From: Escherichia phage HX01
Strand: one strand, 5' to 3'
DNA length: 64,000 nt
Sequence record: NC_018855.1
The position numbers and the translations under genes were made by a program. The notes beneath the pieces were generated by a model, which worked only from the letters and a program-made list of their open reading frames with translations, did no database searches and was not told the origin of the DNA. Positions 17,889 through 53,385 of the stretch are shown here, piece by piece (position 1 is the first letter of the stretch; every line of letters starts with the position of its first letter).

Positions 17889-18362
17889 ATGATTATCAAT
17901 GAAAACTCTTGGCACTTTAAAATTTACGCCGCGTTCAATAGTACATGGAATCGCCCGAAAACGTTGTGTGCTTATTTTTGGAAAACGTTTCTCCCGGTAT
18001 TGTTTGTTTCGATTATTGGATTTGCGATTTTAGCAGCGGCCACAATCGTTGGCCAGGAAATTTTAACTAAATTCTTTGTCTTTAGTAGTTTATGGACATT
18101 AGTTCCGGCCTCAATTGGTGTAGGTGTTTTATTCATTGCATTATGTGTTGGTATTTCTATAGTTTTAGTATTAGGCATACCGTGGCTAATCGACTTATAC
18201 AGAGAGCGGAAGTATTATAAAGAAGTTGAGCTCATTGCACAAAACCAAGAACGAATTAAAAATGGACTTGAGCCTATTGAACGTAAGAAATCATTAATAG
18301 GTGAATACCTTAAAGCTCGTAAAGAAAAAGTCTGTCCTACTCTTGAATATAAGGCTAAATGA
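17889..18362 (+). CDS. membrane protein
   Basis: 157 aa, multiple hydrophobic segments. Confidence 0.6.
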   Translation: MIINENSWHFKIYAAFNSTWNRPKTLCAYFWKTFLPVLFVSIIGFAILAAATIVGQEILTKFFVFSSLWTLVPASIGVGVLFIALCVGISIVLVLGIPWLIDLYRERKYYKEVELIAQNQERIKNGLEPIERKKSLIGEYLKARKEKVCPTLEYKAK

Positions 18363-20951: not shown

Positions 20952-21479
20952 ATGAACGCTAAAGATATTTTCAACCTGGTAAATTATAACGACGGTAAAT
21001 TTAAATCTGAAGCACAAAGCAAGTTCTTTAATGACGTTGCTTATGGTAACGAGATTACCGTGGACGGAGGTCAGATTTTCAAATCTCGCTGGAATTGGAT
21101 TGCTATCATCGATTCAGTTGGAATTGTGGAAGTCTACAAAAACACTAACAAAAAACGTACATTATTCTGGTCTCGTGAAACTAACGAGCAGTACAAAAAG
21201 GATAAAGCATCTCGTTTATCCAAAGTAACCCAGGAAGATATCGAGTTTATCAAGAAAGATATCGAGATGTACGAAAATTTAATCGCTGAAGACCAGGCAG
21301 TACTCGATAAGTTTGATGAAATTAAAGCTTCTCGTGAAATCCCTGACTTCATGAAAGAAACAGTAAACGAACGATACGCTCTCACTTCAGAACGTATTGC
21401 AAACTATACAAAACAGAAAGCAGAACGTATTAGTACTCTTCGGAAATTTGAAGAACGTTTAAAGACGGTTCACGCATAA
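20952..21479 (+). CDS. hypothetical protein
   Basis: 175 aa, SD GGAGG. Confidence 0.6.
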   Translation: MNAKDIFNLVNYNDGKFKSEAQSKFFNDVAYGNEITVDGGQIFKSRWNWIAIIDSVGIVEVYKNTNKKRTLFWSRETNEQYKKDKASRLSKVTQEDIEFIKKDIEMYENLIAEDQAVLDKFDEIKASREIPDFMKETVNERYALTSERIANYTKQKAERISTLRKFEERLKTVHA

Positions 21480-21541
21480 ACGCTTTACCCAAGGACGGGT
21501 TATAATGGTTTTGAGTTCCAATTCAATCTGAGGAAATAGAT

Positions 21542-22537
21542 ATGAGCATTACATCTGATGCGGTAAAACATGAAATTAACGGTTTATGTGCTTCACAGAT
21601 TAAAGTATGGTTTAAAGACCATAATGATCGCAGAGCACTTAATTATGAGCAAATTGCTATCCAAGTTCATCAATTACTGACTAGTAAATTTGATTTTCAT
21701 ATGCCGTCTGAAATCTATACTAATCTACCGCGAGCGCTTATTAAAGCGTGTAAAGGTTACGGAAAATCAATGGCCGATGGAATCTTCAGCGCGCTGAATA
21801 AACTTAACGTTCTGTCGATGATTAACTCTAACAACATCCTGCGTAATCTAGGACGTACTGATTTGTTCGGTCGTGAACAGTGTAAAATGCCTTTGAAATG
21901 GATTGTTGCTCATCTTAACGAGAACCAAACACGTTTTATGGCCGTATCAGCACGCTTACAAATGGGCCTAGATCGTCAGATGAACTTTAAAACTCATCCA
22001 CGGTATTCAGGTTCAACAGACTTTTATAAATGTGAGCTTCAAAAGGTTGCAGGTAAAACTGTCTTAGTAGTTCGTGTAACGTTTGAAGGACGACGTCAAG
22101 GATATTTTGACCTAATCGGCTCTGGTCTTAAACATTGTGGATTTATTGACGAAGTTGATATTAAGCGAGACGGCATTGGATACCGTATTGGATATGTTTG
22201 TACTCTTAAAGAAGAGATTTCAGGACCAGCACCAGGACTAAAAGACGTTAGATATAAAGACGAGCTTGTTGAAGAAATAAAAGAAGTTGAATATGATATC
22301 AACCAAGAAGATGCTCTTAAAGACCTTATTGATGAACTAAACCAAGACATTATTCCGGTTCAGAAATTTGAATCAAAACATGTTGAGCAAATCAAATACT
22401 TTGAAGCTTTGATTAACGAACTTAATGTAACTATTCAACAGACTGATGATGAAATCTCACGATTAGCAGGCTTAAATGGTAAAAATAAAACGGAACGAGC
22501 TAATCTTATTCAAGTAGTAAAACTTCTTAAGGAATGA
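21542..22537 (+). CDS. hypothetical protein with C-terminal coiled coil
   Basis: 331 aa. Confidence 0.6.
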   Translation: MSITSDAVKHEINGLCASQIKVWFKDHNDRRALNYEQIAIQVHQLLTSKFDFHMPSEIYTNLPRALIKACKGYGKSMADGIFSALNKLNVLSMINSNNILRNLGRTDLFGREQCKMPLKWIVAHLNENQTRFMAVSARLQMGLDRQMNFKTHPRYSGSTDFYKCELQKVAGKTVLVVRVTFEGRRQGYFDLIGSGLKHCGFIDEVDIKRDGIGYRIGYVCTLKEEISGPAPGLKDVRYKDELVEEIKEVEYDINQEDALKDLIDELNQDIIPVQKFESKHVEQIKYFEALINELNVTIQQTDDEISRLAGLNGKNKTERANLIQVVKLLKE

Positions 22538-22566
22538 TGTACAACCAGGGATGGTTGGAGTATAAT
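22538..22566 (+). promoter_or_regulatory. early-type promoter (TGTACA -35, TATAAT -10)
   Basis: GGATGGTTGGAGTATAAT. Confidence 0.5.
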
Positions 22567-22592
22567 AAATTTTTCAACATGAGGAATATAAA

Positions 22593-23528
22593 ATGGCTTC
22601 TATTACACGTAGAGAACTTATCAAAGAATTTACCTCGAACGCATATACCCCAGGACCTAATCCTATCCGTATGCCTGTAAAGACTCCTGAAGAGATTGAG
22701 GAAATCTGTTCATATTATGGGATTAATTCTCGTAAGTTTACTCAATTTGAATGCGTTACTAACACACCCGTTAAAGAGTTCATTAAAAATGGTGAGTTCA
22801 GCCGTTTATTAGCCAAACAGAAACTTCGTAATTTTTGTATTGGCGGTGAAGGACAATATTTCGCTAAGCAGTTCAGGAATAACCTTAACAATCTGATGGC
22901 CATTGCTTCTCGTATTCGTCCTCAAGCAATTAACATGAAACATTTGAAATATACTTACGATAAGTTAGAAATCATGGTTATCAGTGAGAACGAGTTCACT
23001 CTTACGTATAAACCTAAGAATGATAACGTTGCTCGTGTATTCCACCAAGCGTTGGAAGTGTTAGGTGATAATATCCACCAGATTAAAGCAATTTATTCTC
23101 GTGAGCTTAATATTATCAACCCTATCAAGAATAAGGGCCATATCGCTATCCAGGCTCGTGTATCTATTGGTAAAAAGGTTCCTGCGCCATGGTGGCACAA
23201 AGACTCTGAATACTATCAAAATCTTAAAAAGGAAAATGCAACGTTCGAAGCGTCAATTACTACAACCCCAATTGGCAATGCTGAAGTTCAAGGTGCATAT
23301 TTTACTGCTCCATCTATATACACTTCACCGTCGACTAAACTGGAAATCTCTAACGGTCTTCTTCCTGCCGAAGATTACTATTATAATCAAATCAAAGCCA
23401 CTGTGGACCAACTGTCTGTTGAACTTGACAAAGCACAAGCTAAGCTTCGTGATGCTCAACAAGTAGTTACCAAGCTCCAGTTGCAGTACTCTAAACTTTT
23501 TAACGCAATGAATGCATTAAAATCATAA
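22593..23528 (+). CDS. hypothetical protein with C-terminal coiled coil
   Basis: 311 aa. Confidence 0.6.
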   Translation: MASITRRELIKEFTSNAYTPGPNPIRMPVKTPEEIEEICSYYGINSRKFTQFECVTNTPVKEFIKNGEFSRLLAKQKLRNFCIGGEGQYFAKQFRNNLNNLMAIASRIRPQAINMKHLKYTYDKLEIMVISENEFTLTYKPKNDNVARVFHQALEVLGDNIHQIKAIYSRELNIINPIKNKGHIAIQARVSIGKKVPAPWWHKDSEYYQNLKKENATFEASITTTPIGNAEVQGAYFTAPSIYTSPSTKLEISNGLLPAEDYYYNQIKATVDQLSVELDKAQAKLRDAQQVVTKLQLQYSKLFNAMNALKS

Positions 23529-23532
23529 ATCA

Positions 23533-23562
23533 GTTTACAACCAAGGATGGTTGGAGTATAAT
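23533..23562 (+). promoter_or_regulatory. early promoter
   Basis: GTTTAC 23533-23538; GGATGGTTGGAGTATAAT near-identical to the 22538 promoter. Confidence 0.55.
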
Positions 23563-23590
23563 CTTTCTATCTTAACGAGAGGAAAATATT

Positions 23591-24541
23591 ATGACACGTT
23601 CACATTACATTGATTATTTTGCAGGTCTTATCGCTAACGTTCATGCCCAACGTGCTTCTGGTTCATTAGGATTTGATGTTCCACACCGAGTTGTAGTAAG
23701 TGGTATTCTTCGCGATTTTGGTACATACACAGGCCAAGAAAATCATATCTGTAAAGATACTCAGAATGCATATTCTCATTCATTAGGGACACTGCTTCAA
23801 TGGTTCAAACGTTCTCGTTTATTATCTTCTACTGTAGCTCGCGATAACATTAAAAACTTTATGAAGCCGAGCTTTATTAAATCTGTGACATCTAAAACCG
23901 ATTTGGTTGAATTCACTATTGTTAATGATGTTAAAAAGACTCATTTGGCTGATTGGTTATCTACCATTCCTGAAACTAAATTTGCTGATAAATTTGCTTG
24001 TCAGTTCAATGACCAAGTGAATATGCTTTTTAAGCATGCTCGTAAACTATTTACTGCAGGTGATGACCGTACAAATACAGTTCATGTTAAGGATTGGGTT
24101 ATTGCTGATGAAGTAACACATAAGCCAGGTGGTTCATCAGTATTAATTAATATTCAGGTTCCTTATTATTACTCACGTAATCTCGGCACCATGAACTCTA
24201 AAGAAATTAATAAGCACAACAAAACTATTCGTTCGTTGTCTTATAAACTCCGCATGATGTTAAAAATTATGGACGTAGTGGAAATGTATGACGAAACCGA
24301 AGATAATGGTTCAATGTTATACAGTTCACGCATTCTAATTAAACTGAAGAACCCTAATACATATAAGCCAAATGTAAAAGAACCTAAAGTAGAAAAGGTT
24401 GATAACCTGAGCGAAGAACGTGAATATCTCAAATCTCGACTAGTTGAAGTTGAAGTCCAGATTGCCGAACACACCAAATTGTTAAAAGCTCTTAATGCAA
24501 AAGCAAATGGTTTACGTAATGCTATTGAGGTATTGAAATGA
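23591..24541 (+). CDS. hypothetical protein with C-terminal coiled coil
   Basis: 316 aa. Confidence 0.6.
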   Translation: MTRSHYIDYFAGLIANVHAQRASGSLGFDVPHRVVVSGILRDFGTYTGQENHICKDTQNAYSHSLGTLLQWFKRSRLLSSTVARDNIKNFMKPSFIKSVTSKTDLVEFTIVNDVKKTHLADWLSTIPETKFADKFACQFNDQVNMLFKHARKLFTAGDDRTNTVHVKDWVIADEVTHKPGGSSVLINIQVPYYYSRNLGTMNSKEINKHNKTIRSLSYKLRMMLKIMDVVEMYDETEDNGSMLYSSRILIKLKNPNTYKPNVKEPKVEKVDNLSEEREYLKSRLVEVEVQIAEHTKLLKALNAKANGLRNAIEVLK

Positions 24542-24855
24542 AAAAGCGTCTATTAGAAGATATTGCAGCTTCAAGTAATTCCAGTCTAATTAAAATTATT
24601 ATGGCTGGTGAAGAAGACGATTTAGAAATGCGCGGAAAGATTCATGGTTGTGACGATTTAGATTTTAAACCTCCGGCTTGGGATGCCATTATGGCTATGG
24701 TTAAACGTCGCGAAAGGGCTTCTAAAAACGTTCCTAATTGTCCTGAATGTGGTACTGAACAGGTTCAATTAGTTCATTGGCAGACTAGTAATCTTCGTTA
24801 TAAATGCCGTCATTGTAAACACCGATTTGACCGAGAAGAAAATGACAAAGCGTAA
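24538..24855 (+). CDS. zinc-ribbon protein
   Basis: CPECG...CRHCKH two CxxC pairs. Confidence 0.55.
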
Positions 24856-25084
24856 AGAATATATGGAGACTGCTGAAAAGGCAGTCCGTGAATTAGCAAT
24901 AGCGTATTATAATGAACACGGTAAATTTCCTGATAGATACAGCGTGCTTAAATCTGCTTTAACTCGTTCATATAAAAATATGCTATCAGAAGTAAGTGAT
25001 ATTATATACAAACATAAAGAACAAACAGGTCAAAGTCTTGATTACGACGAGACTTTTAAACAAGTACTAGGAATTAAGGAATAA
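24842..25084 (+). CDS. hypothetical protein
   Basis: ORF track 24827..25084; start uncertain. Confidence 0.45.
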
Positions 25085-25744: not shown

Positions 25745-26065
25745 ATGACTATTGAAAATAAATTAGATGTTGATGCAGTTCTGAGTGAAATCATCGAAGA
25801 CCATGACGCATTTTCAGAAAATTATGATTTCGATTTTTCGGATTATCTTAAACCTGTCGAAATAGAAGATTGGGTACAAGATGGCAAATGCCAATATCGG
25901 CAGTGCGTTTATTTTAGTCCAAAACATAACGTTCATGTGTCTGTAAATGAATCTCGCTCAGGTTCTTACCATTCTGACTGGTATTATGCAGTTCCGACTG
26001 TTGAACTAGTTGAGCCTCGTGAACGTGTAGTAACTCAGACAATACGAGAATGGATTACGCTATAA
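25745..26065 (+). CDS. hypothetical protein
   Basis: 106 aa. Confidence 0.55.
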   Translation: MTIENKLDVDAVLSEIIEDHDAFSENYDFDFSDYLKPVEIEDWVQDGKCQYRQCVYFSPKHNVHVSVNESRSGSYHSDWYYAVPTVELVEPRERVVTQTIREWITL

Positions 26066-31914: not shown

Positions 31915-31950
31915 TGTACAGACTCTTGAGAGCAGAGTATAATGCTCTCA
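31915..31950 (+). promoter_or_regulatory. early-type promoter; copy of the 2437 cassette
   Basis: 28-nt identity ACTCTTGAGAGCAGAGTATAATGCTCTC with 2444-2471. Confidence 0.5.
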
Positions 31951-51942: not shown

Positions 51943-53385
51943 GTGGTAGAAATTATTTTGTCTCATCTAGTATATGACCAGGCTTATTTTTCTAAGGTCT
52001 GGCCTTATATGGATTCTGAGTACTTTGAGCGTGGACCGGCAAAAAATGTCTTTAAAATTATAAAGAGCCACGTTAACGAATATAATGCAATGCCGTCTAT
52101 CAATGCATTAAAGGTGGCTTTAGATAACAGTTCTTTAACTGAAGCCGAATATAAAGGAACTTCAGACCTAATTGAAAAATTGGCTGATACTCCTGAAGAC
52201 CATGAATGGTTGGTTAAAGAAACTGAGAAATATGTCCAGCAAAAAGCGATGTATAATGCTACGTCCAAAATCATTGAGATTCAGTCTAATGCTGAACTAC
52301 CTCCAGAACAACGTAACAAGAAAATGCCTGATGTAGGAGCTATTCCTGATATTATGCGTCAAGCACTTTCAATTTCGTTTGATAGTTATGTTGGACACGA
52401 CTGGATGGAAGACTATGAAGCACGCTGGCTTTCTTATCTAAACAAAGCACGTAAGGTCCCGTTCAAATTAAACATTCTGAATAAAATCACTAAAGGTGGT
52501 GCTGAAACCGGTACACTGAATGTTTTAATGGCCGGTGTTAACGTTGGTAAATCTTTAGGCCTTTGTTCACTTGCTGCAGATTATCTTCAAACAGGTCATA
52601 ATGTTCTTTATATTTCTATGGAAATGGCTGAAGAAGTTTGTGCTAAGCGTATAGATGCAAACATGCTTGACGTATCACTCGATGATATTGATGATGGTAA
52701 CGTATCTTATGCTGAATATAAAGCCAAGATGGAAAAATGGCGTTCAAAATCCACATTAGGACGTTTAGTAGTTAAACAGTATCCTACTGGCGGAGCTAAT
52801 GCTAATACATTCCGTGCATTGCTTAATGAATTGAAACTCAAGAAGAACTTTGTGCCATCTGTAATCATGGTTGATTACTTAGGTATTTGTGGGTCTTGTC
52901 GTATCAGAGTTTACACTGAAAATAGTTACACATTAGTTAAAGCTATCGCAGAAGAACTTCGTGCATTAGCAGTAGAATCTGAAACAGTTCTATGGACTGC
53001 AGCTCAAGTAGGACGTGCAGCATGGGATGCTTCGGATATGAACATGAGCGATATTGCAGAATCAGCAGGTTTACCAGCAACGGCAGATTTCATGTTGGCC
53101 GTAATTGAAACCGAAGAACTTGCACAAGCTGAACAACAACTTATCAAACAAATCAAATCACGTTATGGTGATAAGAATAAGTGGAATAAATTCCTGATGG
53201 GTGTACGTAAAGGCAACCAGAAATGGATTGAGATTGAGCAAGAAGGCATGAACACACCTAACACAGTAAATGAAAACGCAGGTGCTCAGATGCGTCAGGC
53301 AGAGGTGAATCGTACGGAACGCGTAGGTAAAGCCAAAGCAACACGTGCTGACCTAGATAGCTTAGCCAATGAGTTAAAATTTTAA
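51943..53385 (+). CDS. 41: replicative DNA helicase gp41 (DnaB-like); GTG start
   Basis: MVEIILSHLVYDQAYFSKVWPYMDSEYFE; Walker A GVNVGKS; GTG 51943 after SD AAGGAG. Confidence 0.95.
   Translation: MVEIILSHLVYDQAYFSKVWPYMDSEYFERGPAKNVFKIIKSHVNEYNAMPSINALKVALDNSSLTEAEYKGTSDLIEKLADTPEDHEWLVKETEKYVQQKAMYNATSKIIEIQSNAELPPEQRNKKMPDVGAIPDIMRQALSISFDSYVGHDWMEDYEARWLSYLNKARKVPFKLNILNKITKGGAETGTLNVLMAGVNVGKSLGLCSLAADYLQTGHNVLYISMEMAEEVCAKRIDANMLDVSLDDIDDGNVSYAEYKAKMEKWRSKSTLGRLVVKQYPTGGANANTFRALLNELKLKKNFVPSVIMVDYLGICGSCRIRVYTENSYTLVKAIAEELRALAVESETVLWTAAQVGRAAWDASDMNMSDIAESAGLPATADFMLAVIETEELAQAEQQLIKQIKSRYGDKNKWNKFLMGVRKGNQKWIEIEQEGMNTPNTVNENAGAQMRQAEVNRTERVGKAKATRADLDSLANELKF

Follow-up and report, generated by a model that had tools for sequence, protein, structure and literature searches.

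Three consecutive genes in a 64,000-nt stretch of the Escherichia phage HX01 genome (NC_018855.1; this whole stretch is called the window throughout) encode proteins of similar size that are very probably paralogues. The genes, here w1, w2 and w3 (window genes 1, 2 and 3), are by synteny and similarity the predicted orthologues of nrdC.6, nrdC.5 and nrdC.3 of phage T4. Together with NrdC.4, these types (F6, F5, F4 and F3 for NrdC.6, NrdC.5, NrdC.4 and NrdC.3, respectively) make up, as the comparisons below support, one superfamily of T4-like phages that Pfam has split into PF26899, DUF7235 and PF26897. The explanation that we favour on balance combines anciently duplicated, fast-diverging paralogues with an inferred counter-defence role early in infection. 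The gene families themselves are known (the genes have long been described and more than 600 phage records carry them); new is their linkage into one superfamily, and we found no literature that links NrdC.3, NrdC.4, NrdC.5 and NrdC.6 as one family.

An earlier note on this DNA, made from the sequence alone, had described three consecutive proteins of 311-331 amino acids (aa), and three plus-strand open reading frames (ORFs) lie exactly there (Table 1). The first, w1, follows nrdC.8 as the first member of the array; it matches T4 NrdC.6 (38% identity over 127 aa, E=4e-18) and the full-length, 295-aa NrdC.6 of other Tequatroviruses (32% over ~340 aa, E~1e-32). A precomputed PF26899 match exists on proteins 99%, 91%, 86% and 68% identical to w1, and the F6 profile built around w1 retrieves PF26899 proteins only. 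The second, w2, matches DUF7235 end to end (E=1.2e-112, 376.8 bits against a cut-off of 30; model positions 1-307 of 307 on residues 15-310) and gives a full-length alignment with conserved columns to T4 NrdC.5 (23% over 307 aa, E=3e-7), which NCBI names 'DUF7235 family protein'; the NrdC.5 type, represented by w2 in the window, holds the second array position in all T-even loci compared, and an RB69 protein 96% identical to w2 is annotated NrdC.5. The third, w3, takes the last array position, its stop codon overlapping the start of nrdC.2; it is 55% identical to T4 NrdC.3 (E=6e-119) and also similar to T4 NrdC.4 (27% over 204 aa, E=1.6e-8), and all NrdC.3-type relatives retrieved for it (those with w3 or T4 NrdC.3 as best BLASTP match) carry a precomputed PF26897 match. 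Pfam and PHROGs hold the NrdC types in separate families of no assigned function. A Pfam search of w1 and w3, in a copy that lacks the PF26899 and PF26897 models, returned weak coiled-coil or sub-threshold matches only, an NCBIfam search of the array proteins gave no match, and Pfam, NCBIfam and PDB searches found no match of array proteins to any enzyme family. Many GenBank/UniProt records label NrdC.3-NrdC.8 homologues 'thioredoxin'; Pfam/NCBIfam scans found no thioredoxin or glutaredoxin domain in them, and the label has apparently spread from the gene names nrdC.N.

Primary similarity among the three proteins was not obvious by eye, as the earlier note had conceded, and pairwise BLASTP gave E >= 0.2 for all three pairs. 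We compared alignments of F6, F5, F4 and F3 (117, 77, 32 and 37 distinct sequences, respectively) with hhalign; a first homologue search from w1 alone had yielded only 4 close relatives, and a search with the joint F3/F4/F5 alignment had missed T4-type NrdC.5 and NrdC.4, both recovered through an exact cluster look-up. F4 aligned with F3 over 214 columns (P=1.7e-12, 98% probability), and F5 with F4 end to end over 270 columns (P=1.4e-6, 90%). With the F6 profile, 1.84 billion representative proteins were searched exhaustively by HMMER. Beyond F6 itself this found four proteins of 288-345 aa (E=1.5e-8 to 1.4e-4), which together with one homologue each from Enterobacter phage IME523 and Pectobacterium phage PM2 constitute a group that we call FX. 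In hhalign, FX matched F6 (P=2.8e-19), F5 (P=1.2e-13) and F4 (P=5e-5), against P=0.2-0.6 for the controls. The profile links therefore form a chain: w1 - FX - w2 - NrdC.4 - w3. Among the hhalign controls (nrdC.8, nrdC.10, nrdC.11 and reversed alignments) P was mostly 0.05-0.7; comparisons with unrelated families gave 0.07-0.7, and the two lowest values came from families set against their own reverse (P=0.011, and 6e-4 for F3). Coiled coils can give spurious profile matches, and for this reason the last 60 residues were cut from every alignment: the links persisted, with P=2.7e-11 for FX-F6, 4.5e-6 for FX-F5, 4.2e-5 for FX-F4, 1.8e-4 for F5-F4 and 3e-13 for F4-F3.

Two motifs lie in the aligned hhalign columns. 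The first is a helix with the pattern 'FS..A...L..F' (residues 91-105 of w1, 69-82 of w2 and 76-89 of w3), the second a core motif with the pattern 'F...FR.N......A.R(L/I)', which forms a helix pair (Table 1). Invariant core residues are N128, Q129, R131, A134, A137 and R138 in F6, and F90, R95, A105 and R107 in F5.

AlphaFold 2 (AF2) models were made for w1, from a 107-sequence F6 alignment, and for w2, from a 49-sequence alignment of F5 only. The w1 model (mean predicted local distance difference test score, pLDDT, of 72; 83-94 over residues 1-140) consists of seven N-terminal helices (3-141), a beta-beta-alpha-beta-beta unit (162-221), a disordered linker (225-276) and a terminal helix. In the w2 model the corresponding parts are helices at 6-106, a beta-beta-alpha-beta-beta unit at 125-192, a linker with a helix at 206-223 and a low-confidence stretch to ~258 (pLDDT < 50 over 194-262), and again a terminal helix. 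As modelled, the two proteins show an identical order of elements: helical domain, beta-beta-alpha-beta-beta, linker and an amphipathic C-terminal helix of ~50 residues. A Foldseek search of BFVD with the w1 model retrieved F6 members first and then uncharacterised Straboviridae proteins of ~290-335 aa (E=3e-9 to 1e-4, 13-17% identity) from IME523, PM2, Acj9, fHyAci03, Mineola, Acj61, phage 133 and TG1. The w2 model matched RB69 NrdC.5, PM2 (1.4e-5), JS10 NrdC.6 (2.2e-5, probability 1.0) and Mineola (5.7e-5), a list that overlaps that of w1; the match to JS10 NrdC.6 crosses families, as no F6 sequence was in the alignment behind the w2 model. Members of the FX group are again among these matches, IME523 with the w1 model and PM2 with both. 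Searches of PDB gave nothing usable, either by fold (best E=2.5e-3, to designed proteins, DesK and H-NOX, with TM <= 0.3) or by sequence and profile. The BFVD entries E5EYP0 (318 aa), matched by the w1 model, and E5EYP1 (348 aa), matched by the w2 model, have consecutive UniProt accessions. Presumably their genes are neighbours in a single phage, one of the Acinetobacter/Aeromonas T4-like sequencing set, which hints at tandem family pairs outside the T-even group.

The C-terminal coiled coils that had been read from the sequence were recovered in all three proteins, with differing strength. The last 49 residues were placed in their best heptad register, and the hydrophobic a/d positions were compared with 5000 shuffles of the same residues: 14 of 14 were hydrophobic in w2 (a contrast matched by 0/5000 shuffles), 12 of 14 in w3 (7/5000) and 10 of 14 in w1 (267/5000, borderline), where the signal is weaker because GLNGKNK breaks the pattern. 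This test replaced a cruder scan over the whole proteins, which was underpowered for w1 and w3. For w1 and w2, AF2 predicts long helices at these positions, and the array proteins share the ending L..A...LK. The suggestion of a diversified tandem family is supported by these results, although by way of intermediates and structure, with FX and NrdC.4 joining w1, w2 and w3. Of the two checks proposed for it, structure prediction, which covers w1 and w2, agreed in element order and in the cross-family Foldseek match, whereas pairwise profile alignment succeeded through the intermediates and left the direct comparisons w1-w2, w1-w3 and w2-w3 within noise.

The array occupies one slot of a hyperplastic early/middle region, between nrdC.8 and nrdC.2, in which its types kept a constant order among ten related loci: NrdC.6, NrdC.5, NrdC.4 and NrdC.3, with nrdC.7 in front, in T4 and other Tequatroviruses; NrdC.6, NrdC.5 and NrdC.3 in the window and other Mosigviruses; and NrdC.6, NrdC.5 and NrdC.4 in Dhakavirus-like loci. 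In four metagenomic T4-like contigs (L013-L016), IME523 (Kanagawavirus) and PM2 (Mosugukvirus), a single FX gene stands directly upstream of the nrdC.2 homologue. Thus, T-even phages have 3-4 copies in the slot and outgroup T4-like phages 1, and in every phage examined the nrdC.2 homologue directly follows a family member as a conserved right border. The simplest reading is that one ancestral copy became three or four in the T-even lineage, with lineage-specific losses thereafter. Identity to the T4 counterparts is low, ~33-38% for w1, 23% for w2 and 55% for w3, against 78-100% for most flanking proteins (an exception is nrdC.9, 30% identical to T4). Array alleles, moreover, move between genera, as with the w3-like NrdC.3 alleles (85-87% identical) that occur in Tequatroviruses beside a T4-like NrdC.4.

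Experimental evidence on function comes from T4: nrdC.5 on a plasmid restores plating of the deletion mutant on cells with the SIR2-domain dsr1 of ECOR17, and nrdC.5 was lost from evolved T4 without cost on K-12 (Srikant et al. 2022, PMC9391042). Among the neighbours, the nrdC.8 homologue of the window is the orthologue of the Bas37 gene bas37_0203, a reported inhibitor of Druantia III, nrdC.1 is a reported Septu inhibitor (both bioRxiv 10.1101/2025.11.20.689424), and gp49.2 inhibits OLD (T6 protein; PMC13096335). Since nrdC.8, nrdC.1 and 49.2 are published defence inhibitors, the array lies in an anti-defence island; moreover, the array shows the pattern predicted by an arms race, with genes that laboratory hosts do not require the phage to have, that have diverged to an extreme degree, that vary in copy number and that pass from genus to genus. 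By analogy with T4, w2 is probably an anti-defence protein, and w1 and w3 may be, a proposal that we hold with some doubt. In the mechanism that we propose, w1, w2 and w3 would be produced early in infection to counter host defences: being the NrdC.5 orthologue, w2 would neutralise a SIR2 defence protein of the Dsr1 type or a variant form, possibly with shifted specificity, and w1 and w3 would antagonise other host defences. The variable globular part would serve target recognition, the C-terminal coiled coil would be a putative means of oligomerisation, and promoter-early stem-loop (PeSL) cassettes between the genes would provide short homologies for copy gain, loss and exchange. Indirect hints of such cassette recombination are that the same cassette stands before different paralogues from phage to phage and that the array content varies by genus. 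A more speculative extension, which we regard as rather doubtful, is that the NrdC.3-6 superfamily serves as a modular scaffold for anti-defence, in which a helical core and a C-terminal coiled coil, both conserved, carry fast-evolving surfaces: the coiled coil might give homo-oligomers or mixed oligomers of paralogues, each paralogue may disable a different immune protein, with Dsr1 as the first known target, and recombination at PeSL cassettes may have raised the copy number of T-even phages from one to three or four, resulting in an arms-race array in a lytic phage.

Several points weigh against the paralogy and the counter-defence role. The direct hhalign comparisons were not significant (P=0.026 for F6-F5, 0.26 for F6-F3 and 0.0018 for F5-F3), and therefore the case for paralogy is transitive; comparisons of F6 with F5, F4 and F3 and with a merged F3+F4+F5 profile (P 0.026-0.26) fell within the control range and were not used as evidence. 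The profile alignments contain few effective sequences and were compared as sequence profiles only. The structural evidence covers w1 and w2 only, the w2 model is weak (mean pLDDT 54, predicted TM-score 0.38), and the TM-scores in Foldseek are low (~0.3); such values are expected for flexible multi-domain models, so we take the cross-family match as support and not as proof. As regards function, it is transferred to w2 from a T4 protein only 23% identical to it, NrdC.5 is the only member with a reported phenotype, and no mechanism has been reported for it.

The alternative that survives best accepts the family but assigns it a task other than anti-defence: host take-over, nucleic-acid or nucleotide metabolism (in connection with the ATPase and nucleotidyltransferase genes nrdC.10/nrdC.11 nearby) or regulation, the effect of NrdC.5 then being indirect or specific to that member. 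It would fit the phenotype of one member without a reported mechanism, a core motif whose conserved Arg, Asn and Lys could bind a ligand or nucleic acid, and the retention of at least three copies in nearly every T-even phage, as might be expected of a housekeeping accessory role. However, the loss of nrdC.5 from evolved T4 without cost on K-12, a divergence extreme beside most flanking genes, the variable copy number with alleles swapped between genera, the three neighbouring defence inhibitors, and the absence of enzyme-family or solved-fold matches in our searches all speak against it, and we consider it unlikely, if still deserving of attention.

The near-identical promoters that the earlier note had seen before the second and third genes are indeed present: both are of early type (Table 1), and their 27-nt cores, TACAACCA[G/A]GGATGGTTGGAGTATAAT at 22540-22566 and 23536-23562, differ at one base, with no further copy in the 64-kb window when 3 mismatches are allowed (chance expectation 0.00). 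The w3 promoter matches the sigma-70 hexamers at 11/12 positions. Both promoters are intergenic, lie in a hyperplastic region and match in type the T4/PST-type PeSL consensus TTTACW-N17-TAYWAT (PMC4122927); each has a stem-loop of 6-bp stem and 4-nt loop (-7 to -8 kcal/mol) between -35 and -10. For PeSL cassettes, roles in the attenuation of read-through and in modular shuffling have been proposed (PMC2839356). The N6-AGGA-N6 element recurs, with other arms, in array-gene promoters of other phages: among 10 distinct variants, 90% of the cells pair and 4 of the 6 pairs show compensatory double changes, a covariation score reached by 0/500 shuffles, and slid controls pair at 18-43%. The promoter hairpin was rejected as an intrinsic terminator: its fold energy is no better than that of shuffles (z -0.7 to -1.6), and a plus-strand terminator scan was empty there. 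A structural role is backed by the covariation only. That the likeness of the two promoters is nothing but the T4 early-promoter consensus, and hence uninformative about the genes, would agree with the 18 TTTACA-N17-TATAAT-like sites in the window (1.55 expected), but the identity runs through the 17-nt non-consensus spacer to make a site without a near copy elsewhere in the 64 kb, a comparison of array promoters between phages shows covariation in the arms of the spacer stem-loop, and the w3 promoter and leader resemble those before NrdC.4 in Dhakavirus-like loci; we consider this account quite improbable. The likeness cannot have survived from the ancient duplication, given coding sequences that are less than ~20% identical; it reflects constraint or recent exchange between PeSL cassettes. 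A w3-type cassette before another paralogue, NrdC.4, fits a movement or recombination of cassettes that does not involve the coding sequence.

The promoter of w1, which the earlier note did not cover, differs in kind from those of w2 and w3. Its MotA-box-like element agrees at 9/10 positions with the consensus (a/t)(a/t)(a/t)TGCTTtA, placed 12+/-1 bp from TAtaaT (PMC2988021). The site has its T4 homologue upstream of nrdC.7, and T4 PnrdC.7 is listed among the identified middle promoters; we infer that w1 is driven by a MotA-type middle promoter homologous to PnrdC.7, with predicted activity.

Weakest of the alternatives, and most improbable, is that w1, w2 and w3 are three unrelated ORFans, alike in size and a convergent C-terminal coiled coil and joined by artefactual profile links: it would explain the pairwise BLASTP without matches, the three separate PHROGs and Pfam families, direct hhalign scores inside the control range and, given the known coiled-coil artefacts, F3 matching its own reverse, but against it stand profile links that outlast removal of the last 60 residues, alignments spanning 200-270 columns with the core motifs included, the agreement in element order of two independently built models with a cross-family Foldseek match, and a single syntenic slot with one copy in outgroup phages.

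Table 1. Features of the array and its surroundings (window positions, except in the last row, where positions are those of the respective locus)
Feature	Position	Strand	Remark
w1, 331 aa	21542-22537	+	NrdC.6-type, family F6, Pfam PF26899 Phage_T4_Y05B
w2, 311 aa	22593-23528	+	NrdC.5-type, family F5, Pfam DUF7235 (PF23882)
w3, 316 aa	23591-24541	+	NrdC.3-type, family F3, Pfam PF26897
Core motif WIVAHLNENQTRFMAVSARLQMG, w1 residues 122-143	21905-21970	+	hhalign columns
Core-motif equivalent, w2 residues 90-108	22860-22916	+	hhalign columns
Core-motif equivalent, w3 residues 136-157	23996-24061	+	hhalign columns
Long terminal helix of w1, residues 277-330, one heptad break	22370-22531	+	AF2 pLDDT 71-79
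Long terminal helix of w2, residues 259-310	23367-23522	+	AF2 pLDDT 75-88, best-scored part of the model
Last 49 residues of w3, heptad-patterned, ending LRNAIEVLK	24392-24538	+	heptad count 12/14
Early-type promoter before w2, TGTACA-N17-TATAAT	22538-22566	+	spacer stem-loop CAACCA-GGGA-TGGTTG at 22542-22557
Early-type promoter before w3, TTTACA-N17-TATAAT	23534-23562	+	spacer stem-loop CAACCA-AGGA-TGGTTG at 23538-23553
Middle-type promoter before w1	21478-21506	+	MotA-box-like AAACGCTTTA 21478-21487, 13-nt spacer, TATAAT 21501-21506
Stem-loop variant TACCCA-AGGA-CGGGTT in w1 promoter spacer	21486-21501	+	one of the 10 variants
nrdC.8 homologue, 175 aa, upstream neighbour	20952-21479	+	83% identical to T4 NrdC.8
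nrdC.2 homologue, 105 aa, downstream neighbour	24538-24855	+	89% identical to T4 NrdC.2
~256-aa gene upstream of FX gene	L013 5994-6773, L014 6301-7071, L015 490-1260, L017 4250-5020, L018 4593-5378		

In a megablast search the window was closest to RB69/JS09-like Mosigvirus (~96% identity), and its plus strand is equivalent to the minus strand on the T4 map. The ORFs around the array form a T-even pattern, with NrdC thioredoxin, endonuclease VII and NrdD: nrdC.11 (start at 18359), nrdC.10 (19466), nrdC.9 (20606) and nrdC.8 (20952) precede w1, w2 and w3, and nrdC.2 (24538) follows, with nrdC.1, nrdC, 49.2, pin, 49 and nrdD beyond it in this order. In the window, nrdC.1 (24842-25084) is 100% and 49.2 (25745-26065) 95% identical to T4. 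At the DNA level, the best matches to Mosigviruses end at ~24565, at the end of w3 (junction 24538-24570). Past this junction nrdC.2 and nrdC.1 are T4-like (89% and 100% protein identity), and the closest Mosigvirus (308Ecol101PP) instead has an nrdC.2 that is 53% identical, with an nrdC.7-like gene after it; over its last ~40 nt, w3 is near-identical in T4 and the window, which makes a recombination joint at the w3/nrdC.2 junction likely.

Some array genes of other phages deviate in length. In T4 (NC_000866), nrdC.6 (52066-52893) encodes 275 aa with a shorter, different C-terminus (...IFLFNNMMMKFSDYLD) and without the terminal coiled-coil helix; compared with the 295-aa NrdC.6 of other Tequatroviruses (loci L004/L005/L008, 8999-9886), this short end looks as if it arose by frameshift or truncation in the laboratory strain. 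In a vB_EcoM_G8-like Tequatrovirus (locus L004, 10948-11980), nrdC.4 is broken into ORFs of 193 and 158 aa and is therefore probably a pseudogene, which fits array members that are dispensable and decaying. In non-T-even T4-like phages a conserved protein of ~256 aa is encoded just upstream of the single-copy FX gene; the window has no counterpart of it between nrdC.9 and the array, and as a further member of the family it was ruled out (hhalign P 0.14-0.9), as was nrdC.8 as a truncated member (P 0.07-0.37).

Promoter cassettes also recur away from the array. A second pair of early-type promoters in the window, at 2437-2465 and 31915-31943, has an identical private spacer (ACTCTTGAGAGCAGAG), and therefore repeated cassettes occur outside the array as well. 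Far from the array, at 1946-1961, a promoter contains a further stem-loop of the N6-AGGA-N6 kind, the fourth: GCACCA-AGGA-TGGTGA, with TACTAT after it.

Hundreds of sequenced T-even phages carry the array genes, mostly annotated as 'hypothetical protein' or wrongly as 'thioredoxin'. If they are paralogous to the anti-Dsr1 protein NrdC.5, a testable hypothesis is at hand for three or four dark-matter genes per phage. If the explanation favoured here is true, anti-defence repertoires can grow via tandem duplication and divergence at promoter cassettes, one clan could justifiably be formed from three Pfam families, and the shared scaffold would allow determinants of target specificity to be mapped.

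Compared with known systems, the closest likeness is that of w2 to T4 NrdC.5: an end-to-end DUF7235 match, the same array position, conserved motifs and the ending QxSKLxNAxNALK, whereas overall identity is 23-27% and the N-terminal ~60 residues and the linker differ. Likewise, w1 and w3 are putative positional and sequence orthologues of T4 NrdC.6 and NrdC.3, but the window has no NrdC.4 and, at this place, no nrdC.7, and the linker of w1 has an acidic insertion of ~35 residues that is absent from the Tequatrovirus and Dhakavirus copies of NrdC.6. In T4, NrdC.6, NrdC.4 and NrdC.3 are uncharacterised early/middle ORFs that databases treat as unrelated, whereas the comparisons made here link them into one superfamily. 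The intergenic sites resemble PeSL cassettes (Arbiol et al. 2010, PMC2839356; Comeau et al. 2014, PMC4122927) in their sequence of upstream stop, promoter, stem-loop between -35 and -10, Shine-Dalgarno and ATG, and in that those of w2 and w3 stand before accessory ORFs of a hyperplastic region; they differ in the constant AGGA loop and arms of 4-6 bp (about -7 to -8 kcal/mol) of the array stem-loops. With the anti-defence islands of T-even phages (the dmd-tifA-adfA anti-toxin-antitoxin genes, 49.2, nrdC.1 and the nrdC.8 type), the array shares its neighbourhood, the logic of early expression, dispensability and high variability; however, those inhibitors are small, unrelated and single-copy, whereas the array consists of paralogous proteins of ~300 aa with a shared scaffold.

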